From a virus (Duplodnaviria; Heunggongvirae; Uroviricota; Caudoviricetes), in the IMG/VR virus record IMGVR_UViG_2531839207_000025, positions 1-9,484 of that record: a stretch of 9,484 nucleotides of DNA, one strand, 5' to 3'. The notes below the pieces were generated by a model, which saw only the letters and a list, made by a program, of their open reading frames with translations, had not been told where the DNA came from and did not search any database. Below, in pieces: positions 1-9,484 of the stretch (position 1 is its first letter; every line of letters starts with the position of its first letter). A program made the position numbers and the translations under genes.

Positions 1-282
1 ATGGTAGATTGCAGCCACGGTAATTCCAATAAAGATTATCGCCGTCAGCCTGCGGTGGCAGAATCCGTGGTTGCTCAAATCAAAGATGGCAATCGCTCAA
101 TTATTGGTCTGATGATCGAAAGTAATATCCACGAGGGCAATCAGTCTTCTGAGCAACCGCGCAGTGAAATGAAATACGGTGTATCCGTAACCGATGCCTG
201 CATTAGCTGGGAAATGACCGATGCCTTGCTGCGTGAAATTCATCAGGATCTGAACGGGCAGCTGACGGCTCGCGTGGCTTAA
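1..282 (+). CDS. aroF: DAHP synthase, tyrosine-sensitive; C-terminal 93 codons only (gene starts upstream of the window)
   Basis: Open frame from window start to a stop at 280-282; the translation matches my memory of the E. coli AroF C-terminus; tyrA follows 10 bp downstream as in the aroF-tyrA operon. Confidence 0.9.
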
Positions 283-292
283 GAGGTTTATT

Positions 293-1414
293 ATGGTTGC
301 TGAATTGACCGCATTACGCGATCAAATTGATGAAGTCGATAAAGCGCTGCTGAATTTATTAGCGAAGCGTCTGGAACTGGTTGCTGAAGTGGGCGAGGTG
401 AAAAGCCGCTTTGGACTGCCTATTTATGTTCCGGAGCGCGAGGCATCTATGTTGGCCTCGCGTCGTGCAGAGGCGGAAGCTCTGGGTGTACCGCCAGATC
501 TGATTGAGGATGTTTTGCGTCGGGTGATGCGTGAATCTTACTCCAGTGAAAACGACAAAGGATTTAAAACACTTTGTCCGTCACTGCGTCCGGTGGTTAT
601 CGTCGGCGGTGGCGGTCAGATGGGACGCCTGTTCGAGAAGATGCTGACACTATCGGGTTATCAGGTGCGGATTCTGGAGCAACATGACTGGGATCGAGCG
701 GCTGATATTGTTGCCGATGCCGGAATGGTGATTGTTAGTGTGCCAATCCACGTTACTGAGCAAGTTATCGGCAAATTACCGCCTTTACCGAAAGATTGTA
801 TTCTGGTTGATCTGGCATCAGTGAAAAATGGACCATTACAGGCCATGCTGGCGGCGCACGATGGCCCGGTACTGGGGTTACACCCGATGTTCGGCCCGGA
901 CAGCGGTAGCCTGGCAAAGCAAGTTGTGGTCTGGTGTGATGGACGTAAGCCGGAAGCATACCAATGGTTTCTGGAGCAAATTCAGGTCTGGGGCGCTCGG
1001 CTGCATCGTATTAGCGCTGTCGAGCACGATCAGAATATGGCGTTTATTCAGGCTCTGCGCCACTTTGCTACTTTTGCTTATGGGCTGCATCTGGCAGAAG
1101 AAAATGTTCAGCTTGAGCAACTTCTGGCGCTCTCTTCGCCGATTTACCGCCTTGAGCTGGCGATGGTCGGGCGACTGTTTGCTCAGGATCCGCAGCTTTA
1201 TGCCGACATTATTATGTCGTCAGAGCGTAATCTGGCGTTAATCAAACGTTACTATAAGCGTTTCGGCGAGGCGATTGAGTTGCTGGAGCAGGGCGATAAG
1301 CAGGCGTTTATTGACAGTTTCCGCAAGGTGGAGCACTGGTTCGGCGATTACGCACAGCGTTTTCAGAGTGAAAGCCGCGTGTTATTGCGTCAGGCGAATG
1401 ACAACCGCCAGTAA
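293..1414 (+). CDS. tyrA: Bifunctional chorismate mutase / prephenate dehydrogenase (T-protein)
   Basis: ATG at 293 preceded by aagagg; 373 aa; translation begins [26 protein letters not shown] and contains the GGGGQMG dinucleotide-binding motif; length and sequence match E. coli TyrA as I recall it. Confidence 0.95.
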
Positions 1415-1421
1415 TAATCCA

Positions 1422-1449
1422 GTGCCGGATGATTCACATCATCCGGCAC
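1422..1449. terminator. Hairpin between the convergent tyrA and pheA 3' ends; likely bidirectional terminator
   Basis: Inverted repeat gtgccggatga / tcatccggcac lies 8 bp after the tyrA stop and 8 bp from the pheA stop; T-rich on the plus side (cttttc), A/T-rich on the other. Confidence 0.5.
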
Positions 1450-1456
1450 CTTTTCA

Positions 1457-2617
1457 TCAGGTTGGATCAACAGGCACTACGTTCTCACTTGGGTAACAGC
1501 CCAATACCTTCATTGAACGGGTAATTTCCCCTAACTCTTTCAATGCTTTTTGCATTTCCGCTGATTCAAGATTGGCCTGAATATCCAGATAAAACATCTC
1601 TTCCCATGGATTACCGTGAATCGGGCGTGATTCCAGACGGGTCATAATCAGATTGTGGTTGCGCAGCACCAGCAACGCTTCAACCAGCGCACCGGCTTGT
1701 TGCCCGGTCGCCATTAACAACGTCGTTTTCGCCGGAACCTGGTCAGACACGTTAATGGCTTTACGTGCCAACACCACAAATCGGGTGAAGTTTTGTTGCT
1801 GATTCGCTTCAATACGCTCCAGTACCTGCAAACCGTACAAAGTGCCGCCAGCTTCGCTTCCCAACGCAGCAACATGCGGTGATTTTGCCTGTGCAACCTT
1901 TTCCATTGCCGCAGACGTACTTTCGGTATATTCAATCTTCCAGTGAGGATAACGATTAAGGAATTTGCTGCATTGCTGGAATGGCTGCGGATGGCTGTAG
2001 ACCGTATTAATAGTGGATAAATCAGTCGTGCCGGAGACCAACAAACAATGGTCGATAGTTAACGTCATCTCGCCAACAATCGACAAGCTGGTATGTTGCA
2101 GCAGATCGTAAACGTCGTTTATGGCACCGGAGCTGGTATTTTCAATCGGTACGACGGCATAGTCGGCCTGGCCGGTTTCCACCTGATTAAAAATATCGGC
2201 AAATTTGGCGCAGCCACTTTCAATGAATTGCTCAAAGTGACGGGCAGCATACTGGCGCGCCGCAAGATGGGAATAAGAACCTTTGGGGCCGAGAAAAGCG
2301 ATGCGTGCTGAGTGCGGATTAATTTTATTGAGATGTTGCTGGAGCAAAGCCTGCTGAGTTAATACGGAATCTTCAATGATGAGCTGGAACAGGCGAGTAA
2401 TGTAATGGGCGTCCAGATGGTGCGCTTTACCGAGCGTAATTAATCTTTCCAGTAAATCGCGTTCACGATCAATATCTCGTACCGGGCGATGCGAGAGCAG
2501 TTTGGCTTTTCCTACCTCGACGGCCAATTCGCGCCGCTCTGCCAGTAATGCTAATAATTTTTCATCCAGCGCGCTGATTTTCTCTCGCAGCGCCAGTAAC
2601 GGGTTTTCCGATGTCAT
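1457..2617 (-). CDS. pheA: Bifunctional chorismate mutase / prephenate dehydratase (P-protein)
   Basis: 386-aa minus-strand ORF starting [32 protein letters not shown]; ATG is the complement of cat at 2615-2617; matches E. coli PheA in length and sequence as I recall it; sits downstream of pheL and the attenuator. Confidence 0.95.
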
Positions 2618-2637
2618 AGTGTTGCCTTTTTGTTATC

Positions 2638-2668
2638 AATAAAAAAGGCCCCCCGATTTGGGAGGCCT
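2638..2668 (-). terminator. pheA attenuator (leader terminator)
   Basis: On the minus strand: GGCCUCCC-AAAUC-GGGGGGCC hairpin (8-bp GC-rich stem with one G-U) followed by UUUUUUAUU, between pheL and pheA. Confidence 0.8.
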
Positions 2669-2715
2669 TATTGTTCGTCTTCGCATTCTGTTTCACACGA
2701 CGAAACGCCTCCCAT

Positions 2716-2763
2716 TCAGGGGAAGGTAAAAAAGAATGCGAAGAAAAACGGTGTGTGTTTCAT
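2716..2763 (-). CDS. pheL: pheA leader peptide, 15 aa: [15 protein letters not shown]
   Basis: Minus-strand reading ATG AAA CAC ACA CCG TTT TTC TTC GCA TTC TTT TTT ACC TTC CCC TGA; seven Phe codons in 15; it is under the track length cutoff, so not listed there. The K-12 peptide I recall has Ile at position 4 (here Thr, ACA). Confidence 0.9.
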   Translation of the reverse strand: [15 protein letters not shown]

Positions 2764-2788
2764 GTTTGTTTCCTTAAGTGACTTTAGT

Positions 2789-2818
2789 ACAGTACCCGTA
2801 CTGTTTTCACGCTGTCAA
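2789..2818 (-). promoter_or_regulatory. pheL-pheA promoter (-35 TTGACA, candidate -10 TACTGT)
   Basis: Minus-strand TTGACA (plus 2813-2818), 18-nt spacer, then TACTGT (plus 2789-2794), about 25 nt upstream of the pheL ATG; the -10 assignment is by eye. Confidence 0.5.
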
Positions 2819-2819
2819 C

Positions 2820-2843
2820 AAAAAACGCGCCCGAAGGTGCGTT
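2820..2843 (-). terminator. Intrinsic terminator just upstream of the pheL promoter (minus-strand direction)
   Basis: Minus-strand ACGCACCUUCGGGCGCG hairpin followed by UUUUUU; placed to stop transcripts arriving from the integrase side. Confidence 0.45.
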
Positions 2844-2846
2844 GTA

Positions 2847-2930
2847 AAACCCACTGAATTCAATGTTTTCCCTTTGTTTTCAGTGGGTTTTGTTATTGGT
2901 GGGGGTTACTGATTACCCTATAAAACCCAC
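2847..2930. repeat. Repeat-rich junction between the chromosomal locus and the integrase stop; candidate attachment region or Int arm sites
   Basis: aaaacccactgaa (2847-2859) and its inverted copy ttcagtgggtttt (2881-2893) form a 13-bp-arm inverted repeat; a third aaaacccact copy at 2921-2930 ends right before the int stop codon. Confidence 0.3.
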
Positions 2931-3920
2931 TTATGTGGATGAAATGTGGATGCCTCCTTTTAACGGATTAAGTGAAATTGCATCCTGGAGGAAATCAGGA
3001 GCGAGGTGCGCATAGGTCATAGTTTGCTGGATCGTGGCGTGCCCCATAATTCGCTGGAGCGTAAGTATATTTCCTCCATTAATCATAAAGTGAGCAGCAA
3101 AGGTATGGCGTAGAACATGTACAGCCTGTCCTTTTGGTAGGTCTGGCTTAACACTGCGAAGCACCTTGCGATATTCCTCATAATTGACGTCAAACAAAAG
3201 GCCGGATTTCTTTGTTTTGATCTCACTAACAACTTCATCAGAGACAGGAATAATTCGAACTTTTCCGTTTTTAGTTTTGTTAAACGTCACGCGATTATTG
3301 ATGATGTGTTCCGCGCGTAGATTTTTCGCTTCTCCCCATCTCGCCCCAGTACTGAGACAAAGTAGCGTAATCCGCCGGGCATCACCGTTTACTGCATCCA
3401 GCAATTTGGCGATTTCTTCCGTAGTGAGGTACGTCATTTCGGGTGATTTTCGTTTCAAAGAGGGGAGGGCGCGGAGTGGATTTTCTCCGTGAAATTCTCC
3501 GGCATTTGCCAGAAGTGTAAACATTCCTCCGAGATCCGACTCATCACGCCGAACAGTAGACTCTTTTACTCCCAAAGATAAACGGGAGCTTCGATAAGCG
3601 GCCATGAAACGAGCATTAATCTGGCTAACCCTTGGATCATTCATTTCTTTGATGATTTTTTTCAACCTGGTTAGAACGCCGTTAGCATATGGCTTATTGC
3701 GTCCACCCAATTCCCACCATAACGGAAGCAGATCTGAGAGATGACGTTGCTCTGTTGGCTTTTCAAGCCATTCCTTATCGTGCATGTGGCTGAGAACATA
3801 ACGCTCAAAGGCCACTGCATCTGCCTTTTTCTTAAAAATCCGCTGAATCCGACGTCCACTTCGGCCACGCGGTCTAACATCCACTTTATACCGTCCACCA
3901 TCGAGCGCTTTAATTGCCAT
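2931..3920 (-). CDS. int: Phage integrase, tyrosine recombinase, P2 Int-like
   Basis: Minus-strand ORF; preferred start at 3920 (MAIKALDGGRYKVDVRPRGR, ggaggg RBS 9 nt upstream) rather than the track start at 3953; C-terminal motifs ILCLSTGARWGEA, HVLRHTFAAHFMINGG, LQRIMGH and YAHLAP fit the tyrosine recombinase R..H-x-x-R..Y pattern; strong resemblance to P2 Int as I recall it. Confidence 0.9.
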   Translation of the reverse strand: MAIKALDGGRYKVDVRPRGRSGRRIQRIFKKKADAVAFERYVLSHMHDKEWLEKPTEQRHLSDLLPLWWELGGRNKPYANGVLTRLKKIIKEMNDPRVSQINARFMAAYRSSRLSLGVKESTVRRDESDLGGMFTLLANAGEFHGENPLRALPSLKRKSPEMTYLTTEEIAKLLDAVNGDARRITLLCLSTGARWGEAKNLRAEHIINNRVTFNKTKNGKVRIIPVSDEVVSEIKTKKSGLLFDVNYEEYRKVLRSVKPDLPKGQAVHVLRHTFAAHFMINGGNILTLQRIMGHATIQQTMTYAHLAPDFLQDAISLNPLKGGIHISST

Positions 3921-3986
3921 TGGCAAGCCCTCCGGTGAAACGAGGAAAGACATTTCCAGTTTGTAAAACGTAAGAATAATAAAGGG

Positions 3987-4289
3987 TTAACCAATTTTCC
4001 TTTCGGATGGGGGTAAGTCCGTTGGCTCTTGCCCATAGTGTGCGAGAGCCGGAGCTATCTGCCCGGATTCAGGCGCAATTTTTCCAGTCATAAACCACAA
4101 CGCATATTTCTCAAATCTGGGGTTGTTTAGTATTTGCTCAATTACTTCAGCATTAGGGATAGTTTTACCGCTTTCATATCTCCACAGAGCATCACGGTTT
4201 AAACCAAGCATTTTTGCTGTATCCGGGAGGCTAGTAAGTCTCTCGCTTTCACGCATGATTTTTATGCGCTCTCCAATAGTCATACGCAT
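3987..4289 (-). CDS. Immunity repressor, P2 C-like (HTH)
   Basis: Translation MRMTIGERIKIMRESERLTSL...WFMTGKIAPESGQIAPALAHYGQ closely resembles P2 C as I recall it; the track start at 4304 is a TTG codon, so I prefer the ATG at 4289 (ggaga 8 nt upstream) or 4283; sits upstream of int on the same strand as in P2. Confidence 0.85.
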   Translation of the reverse strand: MRMTIGERIKIMRESERLTSLPDTAKMLGLNRDALWRYESGKTIPNAEVIEQILNNPRFEKYALWFMTGKIAPESGQIAPALAHYGQEPTDLPPSERKIG

Positions 4290-4384
4290 GTTGCAATTCT
4301 CCAACGTCTGTATTAATGTTTATACAAATGAGTTTGATTTGGGGCATCCGTCGCAAGAAATACCCCAAACAGGGAGATTATCAC
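4290..4384. promoter_or_regulatory. Divergent immunity switch region between the repressor and cox-like genes
   Basis: 95-bp spacer between divergent starts; contains tgTATTAAt and TTGATT promoter-like hexamers and the inverted repeat tttgggg(4339-4345)...ccccaaa(4363-4369); individual promoters and operators not resolved. Confidence 0.45.
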
Positions 4385-4711
4385 ATGAATGAAGAACTAT
4401 TGAGGGCATTGTTTAAGATCCCAGACCCCATCACCGTCGATGAGTTTTCCCGCCGCACAGGTAAGACCGAATCAGCCGTAAGAAAGTTGGTAGAGCGTCG
4501 ACTCATCCCTCTAACTACTGAGCGCGAGGTTTTAGGCGAGGAAGGGAGTTCGCGCCGTCTTCTCATCCTTTGGAATGAGTGGCTCGAAATGGTCTATGAC
4601 GCAACGAAACAACTTCCTCCTGAGCGTAAAGATTGGCGCAATCACTGGCTTAAGAAAGCCAAGAAGCTGGCGGAAGATTTGGGATTAGGCTTTCTTAATT
4701 TTGCTGCATGA
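4385..4711 (+). CDS. Cox/Apl-like excisionase-regulator (small HTH protein)
   Basis: ATG at 4385 with gggag 9 nt upstream; 108 aa; segment VDEFSRRTGKTESAVRKLVERRLIP resembles the P2 Cox DNA-binding region as I recall it; divergent from the repressor gene. Confidence 0.65.
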   Translation: MNEELLRALFKIPDPITVDEFSRRTGKTESAVRKLVERRLIPLTTEREVLGEEGSSRRLLILWNEWLEMVYDATKQLPPERKDWRNHWLKKAKKLAEDLGLGFLNFAA

Positions 4712-4729
4712 GATGCAGGGAGTTTTGAT

Positions 4730-5071
4730 ATGAAACAGCAACGTAATTCACGCTTTCGTAATGGTGCTGAACGCCACGCTAACCGTTTCGCTACCAGTGC
4801 ATCGCGTAGCAACTCTCGCTACAGCCTGAGCGAAACACACGCAACGCCGGATGGCTACCCAGTAAAACAAATCGGCGAGCACGCCTGGTTGATTGAGAAA
4901 GCTGGAATCGTGGTCCACAAATGCCCACGCAACCCATTTACCGGAAACCGCATTTTTGCACTGAGCAACGGCGACAATCAGTTCGGGCAGGATTTCACAT
5001 TATACGAAGCACTTCGCACGGTTGATCGTCTGCTTCGCGGGCAAAGTTTTATTAAACAGGCTGATTTATAA
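4730..5071 (+). CDS. Hypothetical early protein, 113 aa, basic Ser/Arg-rich N-terminus
   Basis: ATG at 4730 with agggag 8 nt upstream, 18 bp after the cox-like stop; I do not recognise the protein. Confidence 0.6.
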   Translation: MKQQRNSRFRNGAERHANRFATSASRSNSRYSLSETHATPDGYPVKQIGEHAWLIEKAGIVVHKCPRNPFTGNRIFALSNGDNQFGQDFTLYEALRTVDRLLRGQSFIKQADL

Positions 5072-5081
5072 CAGGTGCTTT

Positions 5082-5360
5082 ATGACCAAAGAGCATGCAC
5101 AAGGTGTATTTATCCGTTTTATTGATTTTCGCGGTGAACTGTTATTACGCGCATCAGCCATTGACGGAGTTGTTCCATCAGAAAAAAACGCAGCTACTTA
5201 CGTTTATCTGAACGGTACGCGCCTGACTGTGGAGCTTCCGTACCAGACCGTACGAGAAATCATTAGCGAAGCTGAAAAGGCACGTCAGGTTAATGGCGAT
5301 GAACCCTATATCGAAATTATTTGTATGGATTCAGAAGCTGAAATTCAGAAAGCAGATTAA
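5082..5360 (+). CDS. Hypothetical early protein, 92 aa
   Basis: Preferred start ATG at 5082 (aggtg 7 nt upstream), in frame with the track ORF 5022-5360 but not overlapping the upstream gene. Confidence 0.55.
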   Translation: MTKEHAQGVFIRFIDFRGELLLRASAIDGVVPSEKNAATYVYLNGTRLTVELPYQTVREIISEAEKARQVNGDEPYIEIICMDSEAEIQKAD

Positions 5361-5371
5361 AGGGCGTTGCG

Positions 5372-5614
5372 ATGGGCAAAGAATATAAAACTCTCATTAA
5401 CAAAGCACTTGAGCGTTTTTATTTTCGCTTAAGTGCATCAGGCGCTCATGCTGAACGTGCAGCCCGTGACTCATTGACCAGGGCAATCCGGAGTTTGTAT
5501 GACGTCGCTTTTTACGCTGATGATCTGGATGCACTTAACGAACTTTCCGAGCTGATCTGTGCCGCAGAATGCGGGGAACATATTGAACCGTATAAGCTGG
5601 GGAATATCGCATGA
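5372..5614 (+). CDS. Hypothetical early protein, 80 aa
   Basis: ATG at 5372, 11 bp after the previous stop; tightly packed in the same orientation. Confidence 0.5.
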   Translation: MGKEYKTLINKALERFYFRLSASGAHAERAARDSLTRAIRSLYDVAFYADDLDALNELSELICAAECGEHIEPYKLGNIA

Positions 5615-5724
5615 GTATATTTATCTCATGGCTTGTTCTGATGATTTCGGTGGCCTGCGCCATTGGAATTATGCGAATTATTCATTCAGTAAAAAAGATT
5701 GAACGTTTTTTCACTGGTGAATAA
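5611..5724 (+). CDS. Small hydrophobic protein, 37 aa: MSIFISWLVLMISVACAIGIMRIIHSVKKIERFFTGE; one predicted transmembrane helix
   Basis: Its ATG overlaps the upstream TGA (ATGA at 5611-5614); not in the ORF track because of the length cutoff; hydrophobic core followed by a basic tail. Confidence 0.35.
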   Translation: MSIFISWLVLMISVACAIGIMRIIHSVKKIERFFTGE

Positions 5725-5817
5725 CGATACAAATAAAACATCAAATTAAATAAGAAAACGTGAAAACCATCCGTATTAACGGAGGTATTCGCACACGCAA
5801 ATAACGGAGATACAAAA

Positions 5818-6228
5818 ATGCACGCAAAAGAAGAAGGTATCATCAGAGCACTGAAAGAAATTTCAAAGATTGAAAGCGAAGTAGCGAAAAAAGCCGTAGC
5901 AAATGCTCATATAGACGTCGCTACCCACGCAATGATAGTCGCAAAAGTCACGGCAGAAGCCGCCAAAATCATCGAAGAACAGGGTGCGGAACTTACGCTT
6001 TTCAAAACTCAACCAGTCACCGGACTGGATTTATCTAACACCGGACGCCTTATTTACACAATTGGCTCGGAGCTACAGCGATACACCATTATCGCCGGAT
6101 TACAGGGCAAATACCTGATCACTCCTCACCCCATAAGGGAATCAGAAATTCTGACAAATCTCCGCCTGATAGATCGCTCTCAAGTTGCATTCATTGATGA
6201 CGCACAGCACACCGTATTTAACGCATAG
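5818..6228 (+). CDS. Hypothetical protein, 136 aa
   Basis: ATG at 5818 with ggaga 7 nt upstream; preceded by a 93-bp AT-rich spacer; I do not recognise the protein. Confidence 0.6.
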   Translation: MHAKEEGIIRALKEISKIESEVAKKAVANAHIDVATHAMIVAKVTAEAAKIIEEQGAELTLFKTQPVTGLDLSNTGRLIYTIGSELQRYTIIAGLQGKYLITPHPIRESEILTNLRLIDRSQVAFIDDAQHTVFNA

Positions 6229-6255
6229 GGTTATTGGACAAAAAAAGGGGGGGCA

Positions 6256-6459
6256 ATGGCAATTAAGCATTTTCCCGTCGTTCGCTTTACCTCCAGAGGG
6301 CGCGAATACGAGGTCGACGAACGCCTGATTACCACTATCGACAAACATCGTTCGGAAAAGGATGCACACCACATCTACCTCACTGACGGCACTTACTTCT
6401 GCGCCACTAATGTGGCGCGGGTAAACCTTATCCGACAGGTACAGGAGCATCGTAAATGA
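6256..6459 (+). CDS. Hypothetical protein, 67 aa; first gene of a four-gene translationally coupled module
   Basis: ATG at 6256 immediately after an A7-G7 tract that serves as the RBS; its stop overlaps the next start (ATGA). Confidence 0.55.
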   Translation: MAIKHFPVVRFTSRGREYEVDERLITTIDKHRSEKDAHHIYLTDGTYFCATNVARVNLIRQVQEHRK

Positions 6460-6674
6460 GCAGAAAGCGAATCACACGCAGGCATCGCCGCACACACATG
6501 AATTCCTTACCGACGCTGAAAGAACTCATTCAACACGAGATCGCTGATTTCTGCGCACCGCTGGGGTCGCCTGGCGAACCGGAAACGCCAGAAGCGATGC
6601 AGCGCGAACTCATGATGCGCATCGATAACGTTTTTGACTTTTTCCTGAATAACAAAAGAGAGCAATCAACATGA
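6456..6674 (+). CDS. Hypothetical protein, 72 aa, strongly basic N-terminus (SRKRITRRHRRTH)
   Basis: ATGA overlaps at both ends (6456-6459 and 6671-6674). Confidence 0.55.
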   Translation: MSRKRITRRHRRTHMNSLPTLKELIQHEIADFCAPLGSPGEPETPEAMQRELMMRIDNVFDFFLNNKREQST

Positions 6675-6874
6675 ACAAAAAGACCTGGTTTCGCGCATAT
6701 ATGTGGGCGCTGGTATGCGTCCTCGTCTCTCTCATTCTGTATGCAGGACTACTCCCCCGAATGATTTCATCAGACAGCTCCTTCCTGGTATTGCTGGGCA
6801 TTTTCATTGCCATGCTGTACCCGGCAGGCGTTGTTCGCCTTTTCAGTAAGTACATCAAGGAAATCAAACAATGA
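6671..6874 (+). CDS. Small integral membrane protein, 67 aa, two predicted TM helices
   Basis: Hydrophobic stretches WALVCVLVSLILYAGLL and FLVLLGIFIAMLYPAGVV; ATGA overlaps with both neighbours. Confidence 0.6.
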   Translation: MNKKTWFRAYMWALVCVLVSLILYAGLLPRMISSDSSFLVLLGIFIAMLYPAGVVRLFSKYIKEIKQ

Positions 6875-7701
6875 AGAAATTCAAACTCTTTCAGATTCTC
6901 CCGCTTTTTGCCGCCATCCTGCTGGTTGGCTGCGATCGCGTTGAGCCAGGTAATGTGGGCATCAAAGTCAACAAGCTGGGCGACGACAAAGGCGTTGGCG
7001 AAGTGGTTGGCGTTGGCCGCTACTGGACTGGCTGGAATACCGAGGTTTACATCTTCCCGACCTTCAAACAAATGAAGACCTACGATGACCCGTTCAGCTT
7101 CCAGATGAGTGACGGCACAACCATCGGCTATCACATCGGCGTGGCCTACAAGGTCGATCCATCCAAAGTTACCACAGTGTTTCAGACCTACCGCAAAGGC
7201 GTGGACGACATTACCGACACTGACCTGCGCCAGAAGATCGCCGACGCACTCAACCGACTGGCCAGCAAAATGACCACAGATAAATTCATCGACGGTGGCA
7301 AGTCTGAACTGCTGGATTCAGCACTTAAAGATATTCAGGAAGAGATGACCCCCATCGGCATTCAGGTCATGAGCCTCTCTTATGTCGGTAAACCGGAATA
7401 TCCGCCAACCGTTATCGACAGCATTAACGCCAAAGTCACGGCAAACCAGAAAACCCTGCAACGCGAACAGGAAGTCAAGCAACGCGAAGCAGAAGCCAAC
7501 ATGTTGCGCGCAGAAGCTGCCGGACAGGCTGATGCCATTCGCACAAAAGCCCAGGCTGAAGCCGACGCCATTCGTTTACGCGGTGAAGCTCTGCGCCAGA
7601 ATCCCGGCGTTATGGAGCTGGAAGCAATCAACAAATGGAACGGCACGCTACCGCAATACATGACCAGCAATACCGCTGTTCCGTTTGTTCCGGTGAAGTA
7701 A
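6871..7701 (+). CDS. Lipoprotein with SPFH/Band-7 (stomatin/prohibitin/HflKC-like) domain, 276 aa
   Basis: N-terminus MKKFKLFQILPLFAAILLVGC has a lipobox (LVGC); the body, with a long Ala/Glu/Arg-rich predicted helix (REQEVKQREAEANMLRAEAAGQADAIRTKAQAEADAIRLRGEA), resembles SPFH-family organisation; assigned from sequence pattern, not a search. Confidence 0.75.
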   Translation: MKKFKLFQILPLFAAILLVGCDRVEPGNVGIKVNKLGDDKGVGEVVGVGRYWTGWNTEVYIFPTFKQMKTYDDPFSFQMSDGTTIGYHIGVAYKVDPSKVTTVFQTYRKGVDDITDTDLRQKIADALNRLASKMTTDKFIDGGKSELLDSALKDIQEEMTPIGIQVMSLSYVGKPEYPPTVIDSINAKVTANQKTLQREQEVKQREAEANMLRAEAAGQADAIRTKAQAEADAIRLRGEALRQNPGVMELEAINKWNGTLPQYMTSNTAVPFVPVK

Positions 7702-7707
7702 TTAAAC

Positions 7708-7732
7708 CCGGCCAGTGAAAACCGCTGGCCGG
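7708..7732 (+). terminator. GC-rich hairpin 7 bp after the SPFH gene stop; possible terminator or RNA-stability element
   Basis: ccggccag / ctggccgg 8-bp stem with a 9-nt loop; the nearest T-run (atttttt, 7745-7751) is 12 nt downstream, so not a canonical intrinsic terminator. Confidence 0.3.
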
Positions 7733-7869
7733 AGCAGTATCAGGATTTTTTAGTATGCCGTTCTCACAAAAAAACCGCTTGCCATGCCGCAATCAGTCAG
7801 GTTACATTTCCGCTGCACCTCATAAAACGGGTGCCGGGTTTCGCAGCCTGCTGACTACAAGAGCGCACA

Positions 7870-7889
7870 ACCGCGCCAGCGGTTTTTTT
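7870..7889 (+). terminator. Candidate intrinsic terminator inside the ORF-free spacer
   Basis: accgc-gcca-gcggt short hairpin immediately followed by seven T; a second T7 run at 7910-7916 has only a weak stem before it. Confidence 0.35.
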
Positions 7890-7930
7890 GTGCGTACTGT
7901 ATTGCCACGTTTTTTTCGCGTCAGAATTAT

Positions 7931-8006
7931 GGCGGGGCGTACGGGGCCGACTTCGGTCGGGCCGGGATCTCTTGTAGCCGGTACTGCGAACCTCGTACGT
8001 CTCGCC
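7931..8006 (+). ncRNA. Candidate structured RNA element, 76 nt, family unknown
   Basis: 13-bp closing stem ggcggggcgtacg (7931-7943) / cgtacgtctcgcc (7994-8006) with two G-U pairs that would be A-C mismatches on the opposite strand; internal hairpin GGGCCGAC-UUCG-GUCGGGCC (7944-7963); in an ORF-free spacer. Confidence 0.25.
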
Positions 8007-8068
8007 ACCCACAGTTTCGCAGCTCTGGATGGTGAGTTTTCACAACTTACTACAAGAGGCCACATATC

Positions 8069-8299
8069 ATGGCAAACCGCAAACAGCACCGCGCTATCGC
8101 GGAGCGTCGTCACATCCAGACTGAAATCAACCACAGACTTTCCCGCGCATCACGCGTCGCGCAAATCATGCACATCAATATGCTGCATGAGCGCAGCCAC
8201 GCACTATCAAACATTTATTCCGCCTCTGTTTTCAGCTATCTGGCGGATGATCTGCACGAGCTTCAACAGCTCATCCAGCAGCAAAACAAACTCCATTAA
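8069..8299 (+). CDS. Hypothetical protein, 76 aa
   Basis: ATG at 8069 with aagagg 9 nt upstream; ordinary amino acid composition, unlike the overlapping 206-codon frame. Confidence 0.5.
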   Translation: MANRKQHRAIAERRHIQTEINHRLSRASRVAQIMHINMLHERSHALSNIYSASVFSYLADDLHELQQLIQQQNKLH

Positions 8300-8371
8300 T
8301 TCCTGTTCCGGGCCTTTCCTGCACCTTGCGGCGGGAGGCCTTCGCACATCTGTAACAAGAGGATTGCCGCA

Positions 8372-8737
8372 ATGATTCTCGCCAACGACTTTCTTGAATA
8401 CCTGCTCAACACAGAACGTGATCTTGCCGCTCGCGTGCGTGATCGTTATGACATGTACCTGAAATCCCTGCCTGTACCGCAGCTCGCTGACGGAAAGATT
8501 GTTATTGATGGTCGCTACATGATTGACAGCCACGAGGGAAATTACAGGCTTTACCGCATTGAAGGTGGCACCCAGTCCGTTATTGGCATTTACCAGCGCC
8601 CATCCTCTGCAATCGTCGATGTGATTGCCGACAGCATCCGCATCACACATCGCCATGCCGACACAGAAGACACCGTGCTGGAAATTCAGCGGCTGGCTAC
8701 AGTCTGCCGCGACACCCTGAATGGCATGACGAAGTAA
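8372..8737 (+). CDS. Hypothetical protein, 121 aa
   Basis: ATG at 8372 with aagagg 9 nt upstream; directly precedes the large downstream gene. Confidence 0.6.
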   Translation: MILANDFLEYLLNTERDLAARVRDRYDMYLKSLPVPQLADGKIVIDGRYMIDSHEGNYRLYRIEGGTQSVIGIYQRPSSAIVDVIADSIRITHRHADTEDTVLEIQRLATVCRDTLNGMTK

Positions 8738-8743
8738 ATCACT

Positions 8744-9484
8744 ATGACGGCAGAGTACATCAGGGACTGGCAACAACCGCGCCACGCAGTGGGGCGTGAA
8801 GGAACGGGGATCCCCGCTCCTGAATCCGCGCTTTCCTCCTGGCTGGATGCCTACCGGGTAGAGAACGAGCGCCGCCAGGAAATGGCTGATGCGGCGTTCT
8901 CCGCCACGCCGCTGGGCAACCTGATTAATAAAAGCCTGGACGCACAGGAAAAACAGGACAAAACCATCACACTGGCAGGAGACGCCAGAAAACAGGCACG
9001 CGGCGCGGTGGATGAAGCCATGGCCTCGCTGCGCCTGCTGCCGTCCTATCTGCGCGATCCGCTTATTCGCCACCTCTCCTTCCTGCGCAAAAAACAGGAA
9101 GCCGATCGCCGGAAAGGCAAAAAGAGCTGGCAGGCGGAACGCTATGCACGCGGAACCCTGCGCAAAATATTCGAACGTCTGGATAGCACTGACGGACGCT
9201 GGCTGACACCGGGTTATCGCTCCCTTGCCGGACGCGAACGCCTGGACGATTTGCTTTACCTGCCGCAGCTCAACAAACACCAGATACAGACGCTGGCCAC
9301 CATGACGGCGGCGATGTTCAGCAGCACCTTCGAAAAACTCTGCGATGGCTTTGGCGCGACCGATGGCGAGCTGACCATGGATGTAACCCTGAAGGCGTAT
9401 CAGATGCTGGCCCGCATGGCGTTACACCTGCACGCCATGCCTCCACATTATGACGCACTGACAACAGACAAAGACCGGAGGAAC
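8744..9484 (+). CDS. 5' part of a large gene, open to the window end; possibly a P2 gpA-like replication initiation endonuclease
   Basis: ATG at 8744, 6 bp after the previous stop, in frame with no stop for 247 codons to the window end (missing from the track because it has no stop); the position after int-C-cox and small early ORFs corresponds to gene A in P2-like phages; sequence resemblance to gpA is from weak memory. Confidence 0.55.
   Translation, partial: MTAEYIRDWQQPRHAVGREGTGIPAPESALSSWLDAYRVENERRQEMADAAFSATPLGNLINKSLDAQEKQDKTITLAGDARKQARGAVDEAMASLRLLPSYLRDPLIRHLSFLRKKQEADRRKGKKSWQAERYARGTLRKIFERLDSTDGRWLTPGYRSLAGRERLDDLLYLPQLNKHQIQTLATMTAAMFSSTFEKLCDGFGATDGELTMDVTLKAYQMLARMALHLHAMPPHYDALTTDKDRRN

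Follow-up and report, generated by a model that had tools for sequence, protein, structure and literature searches.

Which genes does a P2-like prophage carry in its early operon when most of those known from P2 are missing, and what is the long spacer between them? The question is raised by a stretch of 9,484 nucleotides (positions 1 to 9,484 of the IMG/VR virus record IMGVR_UViG_2531839207_000025, Caudoviricetes; the whole stretch is referred to here as the window). Its rightward operon begins with a cox-like gene (4385-4711) and runs on into the gene for the replication endonuclease A (from 8744). A preliminary description of positions 4385-8737, made from the sequence alone, had seen there a departure from the layout of P2, a large non-coding spacer, a patchy composition and the signs of a defence or anti-defence hotspot.

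Positions 4385-8737 belong to the early lytic operon of a prophage of the P88-like type (Xuanwuvirus, Peduoviridae), which is located beside pheL. This placement was obtained with BLAST, and the DNA identity to phage P88 (NC_026014) is 95.7% over the shared segments. The spacer is an antisense-RNA regulatory cassette, which is the most informative feature of the region and had been passed over in the preliminary description. It is followed by a gene for a homologue of the epsilon (E) protein of the satellite P4. P2 is the textbook example of a non-inducible prophage, and P4 epsilon is the textbook means by which a satellite wakes P2.

An antisense-RNA cassette in the spacer

The spacer (7702-8068, 367 nt) had been described as non-coding, and indeed no protein gene in it is credible, but it is not empty, and two Rfam RNA families are found in it. 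The elements of the cassette, together with the gene that it precedes, are as follows.

7779-7808, + strand: promoter-like site TTGCCA-18 nt-TACATT (consensus scan), with a putative start near 7815
7815-7889, + strand: IsrK/seqA-like RNA (Rfam isrK, 66.7 bits, gathering threshold 50)
7840-7846: target box a1 in IsrK (TTCGCAG)
7855-7863: target box b1 in IsrK (CTACAAGAG)
7869-7884: hairpin of the intrinsic terminator of the IsrK-like RNA, followed by a T run
7925-8012, + strand: C4/CI-type antisense RNA (Rfam C4, 81.1 bits, gathering threshold 45)
7969-7977: recognition box b' of C4 (CTCTTGTAG), in the loop of the second hairpin
7984-7990: recognition box a' of C4 (CTGCGAA), unpaired
8016-8022, + strand: downstream target a2 (TTCGCAG)
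8050-8058, + strand: downstream target b2 (CTACAAGAG)
8069-8299, + strand: gene for a 76-residue homologue of P4 epsilon, a putative antirepressor (Pfam Derepression, PF25738, 34 bits, cut-off 27)

The putative start near 7815 is the first base of the isrK match, and the promoter-like block is almost invariant in 66 related loci. A third Rfam family, c4-a1b1, is also matched in the window, though weakly. The minimum-free-energy fold of the C4-like RNA (-47 kcal/mol) leaves both of its boxes exposed. Box a' is complementary to the heptamer found at both a1 and a2, and the sequence shared by b1 and b2 is the complement of the C4 loop that forms b'. Moreover, the gene starting at 8069 has its Shine-Dalgarno sequence, AAGAGG, at 8054-8059, and b2 extends into it. 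This layout is the a1b1 - c4(a'b') - a2b2 arrangement of the immI region of P1 and P7.

Two further candidate elements were considered and set aside. A separate promoter for C4 at 7902-7930 is unlikely, as its -10 element overlaps the 5' end of the RNA, its start would lie inside the first stem, and its -35 element is not conserved. A third target of C4, at the ribosome-binding site of the next gene (8372-8737), was rejected because the partial b-like site there is invariant whatever the b allele.

Concerted variation of the boxes

Relatives of the operon were gathered with the DUF4754 gene as the anchor, giving 80 IMG/VR loci (the best 80 of 235 matches), two genome loci, P88, and one Escherichia coli chromosome, and the proteins of the window were mapped onto them. 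The stretch from the gene for a 37-residue peptide to A is spanned by 75 of these loci, to which the module counts below refer; 82 related loci were used for counts of the backbone genes. Upstream sequences from 66 loci gave 41 distinct ones, and 38 of these were aligned.

The scaffold of the cassette is almost invariant in the 38 sequences, while the boxes vary in concert at three places. The pairing of a1b1 with a'b' is kept in 608 of 608 cells, a count that is inflated because the pairing structure was taken from the sequence of the window itself; this choice cannot yield compensatory changes, however, and 11 of the 16 pairs are changed on both sides (142 cells). The covariation score for this pairing is 0.666, compared to 0.127 in shuffles (none of 500 reach it), and slid controls are paired in 28-53% of cells. 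The pairing of a'b' with a2b2 is kept in 98.5% of cells, with 10 pairs changed on both sides and a score of 0.629 (0.120 in shuffles). The entropy of the box columns is 0.80 bits, about fourfold the 0.20 bits found elsewhere, and none of 20,000 random column sets reaches this value.

Five a alleles and 13 b alleles are found, in 17 combinations. The target boxes of the window, for example, are TTCGCAG and CTACAAGAG, whereas those of P88 are TTTCCAC and CAACTACAG. Duplexes between cognate boxes have an average energy of -17.8 kcal/mol, compared to -3.5 kcal/mol for pairs that share neither box.

The epsilon-like protein and the C repressor

The 76-residue protein is 30% identical to P4 epsilon (BLASTP, E=3e-10). 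The ratio of nonsynonymous to synonymous substitution rates (dN/dS) in its frame is 0.2-0.5, indicating purifying selection. The cassette behaves as a unit together with this gene: isrK, C4 and the epsilon-like gene are all three present in 61 loci, and none of them is present in the other 14.

The gene for the HTH repressor C lies on the other side of the cox-like gene. The C protein of the window is 52% identical to that of P2 and has kept Trp64, Thr67 and Ile70, and all C alleles of the P88-like loci are of the P2-C type. P4 epsilon binds the C repressor of P2, an interaction that is weakened by mutations of Thr67 and Ile70 in C (PMC2995052).

The alleles of the epsilon-like protein are associated with those of C, with a mutual information of 0.91 compared to 0.41 in shuffles, which is significant. 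A class of the protein with the central segment IDRRLTRAAHIAFIMQSNTLHRLNSTISADYCA is found only with C alleles that have Phe or Tyr at the position of P2 C Thr67 (9 of 9 loci, with three C motifs). This restriction may reflect either co-adaptation or linkage.

Comparison with P4, P1/P7 and Gifsy-1

The immunity region of P4 has Rfam matches to isrK (60.8 bits), c4-a1b1 (44.1 bits) and C4 (74.9 bits) directly upstream of epsilon. The order of the elements (seqA - cI/CI RNA - seqC - epsilon) and the three RNA families are the same as in the window, and the proteins are homologous. There are several differences, however. P4 epsilon acts on the repressor of a helper, whereas the cassette in the window is located in a helper-type phage, beside that phage's own P2-type C. 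In addition, the CI RNA of P4 has been described as causing termination of transcription (PMC4825925, PMC3632133), whereas b2 in the window covers the ribosome-binding site. The two groups also have no box sequences in common.

IsrK and C4 have been equated with the seqA and CI RNAs of P4, and P1, P7 and N15 use similar systems (PMC3632133). The immI region of P1/P7 (c4 - icd - ant) and its counterpart in N15 have a processed antisense RNA with two boxes, a1b1 upstream, a2b2 downstream, and an antirepressor operon (PMC3632133). On the other hand, the protein encoded in the window is unrelated to Ant or Icd, and its phage is a P2-family myovirus with a P2-type C instead of the C1 repressor. Differences between the boxes of P1 and P7 reportedly make the two phages heteroimmune (Citron and Schuster, 1990).

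In the Salmonella prophage Gifsy-1, the isrK promoter gives rise to the short IsrK and to a read-through mRNA with a translationally silent antirepressor gene, and IsrK supplied in trans activates translation 140-fold (PMC4825925). The isrK-orf45-anrP region shares with the window the promoter, a short IsrK with its own terminator, read-through into an antirepressor gene (PMC4825925) and the Rfam isrK family. In contrast, Gifsy-1 belongs to the lambdoid phages, and there is no relationship between its AnrP and epsilon. The model published for it also has a coupling reading frame, orf45, at the place where Rfam recognizes C4, whereas the corresponding frame in the window has no stop before the gene.

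The box variation was also followed in 80 P4-like loci (L089-L168), in which epsilon is 97-99% identical. Three a' alleles, at least seven b' alleles and at least twelve combinations of boxes are found there. The satellites show the same combinatorial variation as the P88-like phages, and hypervariable boxes are therefore a general trait of this type of cassette.

The a' alleles of the satellites (TTCTCAC, TTTCCAC and TTCCTAC) are strand-swapped a targets of the P88-like phages; TTTCCAC, for instance, is an RNA box in satellites and a target box in P88. No b allele is shared by the P88-like phages and the P4-like satellites, and there is no evidence for direct cross-talk between helper and satellite. 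We consider it rather doubtful that the code of the a and b boxes forms a second, combinatorial layer of RNA immunity common to P2-family helpers and P4 satellites, with an epsilon-type antirepressor belonging to the helper lineage itself, with the immunity-derepression module exchanged between helper and satellite, and with mutual silencing or triggering of the two, or of prophages in the same host, through matching or decoy RNAs. If such a layer did exist, the strand-swapped a' alleles would be a trace of cross-talk.

Proposed mechanism and a possible second immunity

The most probable explanation, and one that we hold to be likely, is that the IsrK-C4 cassette is an optional module of the P88-like early operon that gates an epsilon-like antirepressor of the phage's own C. 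In this model, the internal promoter would give a short IsrK-like RNA that carries a1 and b1. Read-through of the terminator would produce a C4-like RNA with the complementary a' and b', presumably after processing by RNase P. Pairing of C4 with a2 and b2 on the mRNA would mask the ribosome-binding site and keep the epsilon-like gene silent, and it may also be polar on the downstream replication genes. IsrK, with its a1 and b1 boxes, would act as a competing target (decoy) for C4. The epsilon-like protein, once made, would most likely bind and inactivate the P2-type C of the same phage, and lytic growth would follow. Membership in the RNA families, the complementarity of the boxes with their three-way covariation, the cohesion of the cassette and the kinship with epsilon are established here, whereas transcription and processing, the level of control, the protein's partner and the trigger are inferred.

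P88 was obtained after treatment with mitomycin C (PMC5285337), and its C protein has no cleavage domain. Phage phiSM is released spontaneously (PMC6456863). Both observations are consistent with an antirepressor route, but they are no proof of it.

Several points weigh against this model. The promoter, the read-through of the terminator and the processing by RNase P are assumed from the sequence. The CI RNA of P4 terminates transcription and does not block translation, so the level of control in the window is uncertain. The association between the epsilon-like protein and C is not strict, as the same epsilon-like allele is found with several C alleles and the C allele of the window with two protein alleles. 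Moreover, the b box shows an association with C as well, which makes it impossible to separate linkage from an association between protein and C. A scan for LexA boxes (CTGT-N8-ACAG, with at most one mismatch) gave two matches inside coding sequence, at chance level, and none near the cassette, and no other obvious signal input was seen. Finally, the IMG/VR loci are closely related, and the sequence counts are not counts of independent events.

The alternative that survives best is a second immunity in the manner of P4, in which the prophage would make C4 constitutively. When a phage with the same boxes comes in, this RNA would prevent transcription, through Rho-dependent polarity or termination, from reaching the epsilon-like gene of that phage, the DUF5405-like gene that follows it and A. 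Under this reading, the variable boxes would serve as specificities of heteroimmunity and not as parts of an induction switch. We regard this as possible, though clearly less probable than the gated antirepressor. The cassette is located directly upstream of the replication module and is built like the immunity region of P4, in which CI RNA keeps the replication genes from being expressed (PMC3632133, PMC4825925). Strong diversification of the boxes, set in a scaffold that does not vary, is what one would expect if phages escape from the RNA of a resident, and the 80 P4-like satellites vary in the same combinatorial manner. On the other hand, b2 is positioned on the Shine-Dalgarno sequence, which suggests that control is translational, as it is in P1. 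Changes in the boxes are not accompanied by changes at the ribosome-binding site of the following gene (8372), and no terminator-like site was found on the + strand between 8012 and 8744. The second immunity is compatible with the gated antirepressor, and the two do not exclude each other.

Organization of the early operon

The other features of the operon are as follows.

4385-4711, + strand: cox-like gene (Pfam Phage_Cox, 25.3 bits, just below the cut-off of 27.5; phrog_11919, E=6e-70; phrog_272, Cox-like, E=2e-4)
4730-5071, + strand: DUF4761 gene (Pfam, 231 bits)
5082-5360, + strand: phrog_3800 gene (PHROGs match)
5372-5614, + strand: DUF4754 gene (Pfam, 182 bits)
5611-5724, + strand: 37-residue membrane peptide
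5725-5817: AT-rich junction between genes (GC 0.33), where optional module 1 is inserted
5818-6228, + strand: optional module 1, 136-residue orphan 'prophage protein' (phrog_9338)
6256-6459, + strand: phrog_3459, 67 residues (PHROGs, E=8e-45), found in 73 of 75 loci
6456-6674, + strand: 72-residue Ead/Ea22-like variant
6671-6874, + strand: optional module 2, 67-residue membrane protein (phrog_1130, 'membrane protein, moron')
6871-7701, + strand: optional module 2, 276-residue SPFH/Band-7 lipoprotein (Pfam Band_7, 108 bits; lipobox-like N-terminus LLVGC)
8372-8737, + strand: 121-residue protein, probable relative of DUF5405 (hhalign)
8744-9484, + strand: replication endonuclease A, N-terminal part, the right-hand anchor (Pfam Phage_GPA, 38.8 bits for the partial protein, cut-off 31.4; GC 0.59)

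Exactly eleven genes are located between the cox-like gene and A (the ten in the list above and the epsilon-like gene at 8069-8299), in agreement with the earlier estimate of about eleven. The statement that none of them can be identified as B also holds. Searches of the window with the early proteins of P2 and 186 (tblastn, E<=10) gave only noise, the best match of P2 B having an E value of 3.0, and of the window reading frames searched against P2 and 186 only int and C were matched. No counterparts of P2 orf78, orf80 (DUF2732) or orf82 (DksA-like) were found in the window with tblastn in either direction, and there was no Pfam match to DUF2732 or to a zinc finger. According to its annotation, 186 also lacks a homologue of P2 B, and the P2 layout is therefore not canonical for the whole family.

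The window shares with the early operons of P2 and 186 the divergent C and cox-like genes, a P2-type C, an A-type endonuclease and probably a DUF5405 gene upstream of A. Compared to the P2 operon (cox-orf78-B-orf80-83-A), it has no B, orf78, DUF2732 gene or DksA-like gene. Apart from the outlying int and C, the links of the region to P2 are thus limited to A, the cox-like gene and probably the DUF5405-like gene. The departure from the P2 layout is real, but it is not peculiar to this locus and is the norm for the P88-like subfamily. The backbone is kept in 75 loci, in the order DUF4761 - phrog_3800 - DUF4754 - 37-residue peptide - phrog_3459 - ... - A, and that of the window has roughly 96% nucleotide identity to P88. 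The layout of the operon is ordinary mosaicism of a known and common subfamily of the P2 family.

The conserved backbone consists of the cox-like gene, DUF4761, phrog_3800, DUF4754, the 37-residue peptide, phrog_3459, the DUF5405-like gene and A. The four genes at 4730-5724 are found in nearly all of the 82 related loci; they have no relatives among solved structures, and a sequence search with five small proteins against solved structures gave nothing meaningful. The A gene is annotated as a replication endonuclease in relatives. A distant relationship to P2 Orf81/Orf83 and 186 CP83 (DUF5405) is probable for the 121-residue protein encoded just before A, as suggested by an hhalign probability of 86.9% (E=4e-6) between shallow profiles, with no direct Pfam match. 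One more P2 anchor is therefore kept, which corrects the preliminary description. The DUF5405-like gene and A change allele together: wherever the A allele is of a type with 60-66% identity, the 121-residue protein is exchanged for a 129-residue homologue with 23% identity.

The cox-like gene matches the P2-type operon in its position and in its orientation, divergent from C. Loci that have it always share the int allele of the window, and their C allele is either the same or a related one (71-72%). The int-C-cox genes are an immunity module that travels as a unit, and this module is exchangeable, with about ten C-motif types.

P88 and its relatives (vB_EcoM-569R5, P884B11 and Citrobacter phiSM) share with the window the backbone and its order, the membrane protein-SPFH pair, the IsrK-C4-derepression cassette, the DUF5405-like gene and A. 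There are several differences from P88, however. The int-C-cox module is another allele (41-50% protein identity), the 136-residue orphan is present in the window and absent from P88, a winged helix-turn-helix (wHTH) gene of P88 is absent from the window, and the Ead-like gene of the window is shortened.

Optional modules and the hotspot proposal

Between the 37-residue peptide gene and A the loci differ in length by discrete steps, with distances of 1006 to 3360 bp. The earlier notion of variable cargo between conserved anchors is borne out in this sense, as exchangeable modules are found at fixed junctions. The window is one of the larger configurations of the region, with three modules: the 136-residue orphan, the membrane protein with the SPFH lipoprotein, and the spacer cassette.

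The first module is inserted between the 37-residue peptide gene and phrog_3459, a gap that is about 89 nt when empty and 355, about 530-546 or 845 nt when filled in relatives. The 136-residue orphan is present in 31 loci, as several alleles with 35-93% identity. Its homologues are nearly all from Escherichia and Shigella, with one from Citrobacter, and all of them are unnamed. The AlphaFold model of this protein (mean predicted local distance difference test score 78.9) shows a helical hairpin and a small SH3/KOW-like barrel. A Foldseek search of the Protein Data Bank with this model found no significant neighbor (best E=0.027, template modelling score 0.3), and the homologue search gave no functional assignment either.

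An Ead/Ea22-like protein of 98-104 residues is found in 50 loci, and the 72-residue variant of the window, which has a different N-terminus and matches the longer form only in its C-terminal ~49 residues, is found in 13 loci. The usual predecessor of the Ead-like gene, encoding a MarR_2-type wHTH protein, is present in 62 loci and absent from the window. The missing wHTH gene and the 72-residue form, with a junction at 6459, look like a deletion or replacement common to the 13 loci.

The membrane protein and the SPFH lipoprotein occur together in 19 loci. The SPFH gene is about 92% identical in DNA to an early-left gene of Stx2a-converting lambdoid phages (L088, 2947-3774), which points to a recent swap of one accessory gene between unrelated phage families. 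In many of these phages the counterpart is annotated as a 'serine protease', and it lies between the CI-side early genes and xis/int. The nearest relative of the SPFH protein among solved structures is HflK (E=1e-4), a modulator of FtsH. This gene behaves like a moron, and a literature search for SPFH proteins in phage defence or exclusion turned up nothing relevant. At the junction occupied by the SPFH pair, some relatives have reading frames of 155-161 residues on the opposite strand, with hydrophobic stretches (L018, 8413-8880, - strand; L048, 4259-4744, - strand). They gave no match with PADLOC, and with Pfam only a sub-threshold match to ATP-synt_I (L048); they are possible morons.

In the hotspot proposal, the 136-residue orphan, the membrane protein-SPFH pair and the alternative cargos would protect the lysogen or counter the defences of the host. 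The modules are optional and located at fixed junctions, the sharing of the SPFH gene with unrelated lambdoid phages is typical of a moron, the 67-residue membrane protein is filed as such in PHROGs, and the opposite-strand frames at the same junction are membrane-like. However, PADLOC (PADLOC-DB 2.0) found no credible match for the reading frames of the window or for eight alternative cargo proteins, with only HTH-level or sub-threshold hits (E>=1e-4). The cargos are small single genes and not multi-gene systems, and those of the relatives are, by Pfam, mostly small DNA-binding or membrane proteins, including the wHTH protein and a multi-HTH protein. In addition, most of the region is conserved backbone, and the fold of the 136-residue protein matches nothing known. 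We therefore consider the hotspot proposal improbable.

Base composition

The composition of the region had been described as AT-rich around 5600-5830 and GC-rich over 7380-9484. The first part is correct, with a GC content of 0.359 for 5600-5830, in the lowest 1.1% of all 231-nt windows; this patch consists of the 37-residue peptide gene and the intergenic junction that receives the optional gene. Over 7380-9484 the GC content is 0.552, yet a clear GC richness is confined to 8541-9484 (0.581), compared to 0.529 for 7380-8540. The variance of GC in 200-nt bins is 0.00322 in the prophage part, a value reached by none of 2000 shuffles and about threefold that of the host part (0.00096). The main compositional step lies near 6250 and not at the limits given earlier, as the GC content at third codon positions is 0.43 from the cox-like gene to 6228 and 0.63 from 6256 to A (chi2=54, p=2e-13); it is 0.33-0.49 for the genes at 4730-5724.

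The different composition had been taken as a sign of modules of different origin. However, the AT-rich and the GC-rich genes both belong to the backbone common to the relatives, in which they are 95-100% identical. The patchiness is therefore old in the lineage and does not reflect a recent import.

Position of the prophage

The remaining features of the window lie to the left of the operon.

Window start, host part: E. coli genes aroF (3' end), tyrA and pheA, followed by the Phe leader
2639-2764: Phe leader, pheL (Rfam Phe_leader, 132 bits)
2931-3920, - strand: tyrosine integrase (int)
3987-4289, - strand: HTH (helix-turn-helix) repressor C, 100 residues

The prophage part begins near 2930, after the host genes. 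Its integrase end is only about 170 nt away from the Phe leader, so the attachment site must be within 2765-2930, directly upstream of the control region of the phe operon. At least 80% of the segment 2600-9484 is present in 83 of 5426 complete E. coli genomes, in some of them as one collinear match.

Two of the relatives deserve a comment. A scan of genome contigs gave two loci, one of which (L005, NZ_JBQPOM010000071.1) is a 226-kb contig labelled Vagococcus sp., with P88-like early genes 86-98% identical to those of E. coli; contamination or mislabelling of the assembly is likely. In a locus from E. albertii (L006), the segment 2740-2874, upstream of the integrase end of the prophage, matches the small RNA STnc130 of Rfam (132 bits).

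Distribution and annotation of the cassette

About a fifth of the complete E. coli genomes (1154 of 5426) carry the whole cassette. Among 50,697 phage records, the 76-residue protein is found in only nine, all P88-like. Many Stx lambdoid phages have the RNA scaffold by itself, which sometimes lies at a Rha or an antirepressor gene. No C4 or isrK was found in P2 and 186.

That a piece of a P4-like satellite, or of another element, landed here by chance and forms a cassette with no function in the phage is very unlikely. The closest characterized counterpart of the cassette is indeed in the satellite P4, and the cassette is absent from 14 of the 75 loci as well as from P2 and 186. However, phages that were isolated as virions or plaques, P88 and phiSM among them, carry it at this same place (PMC5285337, PMC6456863), and no other P4 gene is found alongside it. 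Its frequency in E. coli genomes, the purifying selection on the protein and the three sets of boxes that still match also argue against such an origin.

That the spacer encodes a protein of 206 residues (7755-8375, an 'ash family protein' pseudogene in RefSeq) is hardly credible: although this frame is open in 58 loci and has a weak match to Pfam Phage_ASH (22.9 bits, below the cut-off of 26), its dN/dS reaches about 1 or more in the overlap with the epsilon-like gene, it contains the promoter-like site and the intrinsic terminator, its DNA matches two RNA families above their gathering thresholds, its variation is explained by RNA pairing, and the Phage_ASH match of the P4 'cI' frame itself falls on the CI/C4 RNA gene.

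What the Phage_ASH family (PF10554) describes appears to be the translated IsrK/C4 (CI RNA) gene. The P4 'cI gene product' frame (L087, 8168-8584) matches this family with 59.7 bits, and the matching residues lie on C4; the match of the 206-residue frame in the window is over the isrK-C4 DNA. A survey of P4-like satellites relied on PF10554 to mark 'epsilon' (PMC8628076). RefSeq, with its 'ash family' label on the cassette DNA, misses the RNAs.

Implications

A cassette of this kind is known from P4 and P1. Here it is located inside a helper-type phage, and the RefSeq and GenBank annotations inspected do not show it as RNA. The finding points to a common ancestry of the regulatory modules of helper and satellite, and the many orthogonal box alleles are a natural set of RNA specificities. 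If the proposed mechanism is correct, a widespread lineage of the P2 family would keep its own epsilon homologue behind an antisense-RNA gate of the P4/P1 type, with a derepression that is independent of RecA-dependent cleavage built in, and this antirepressor route could explain the recovery of P88 after mitomycin C.

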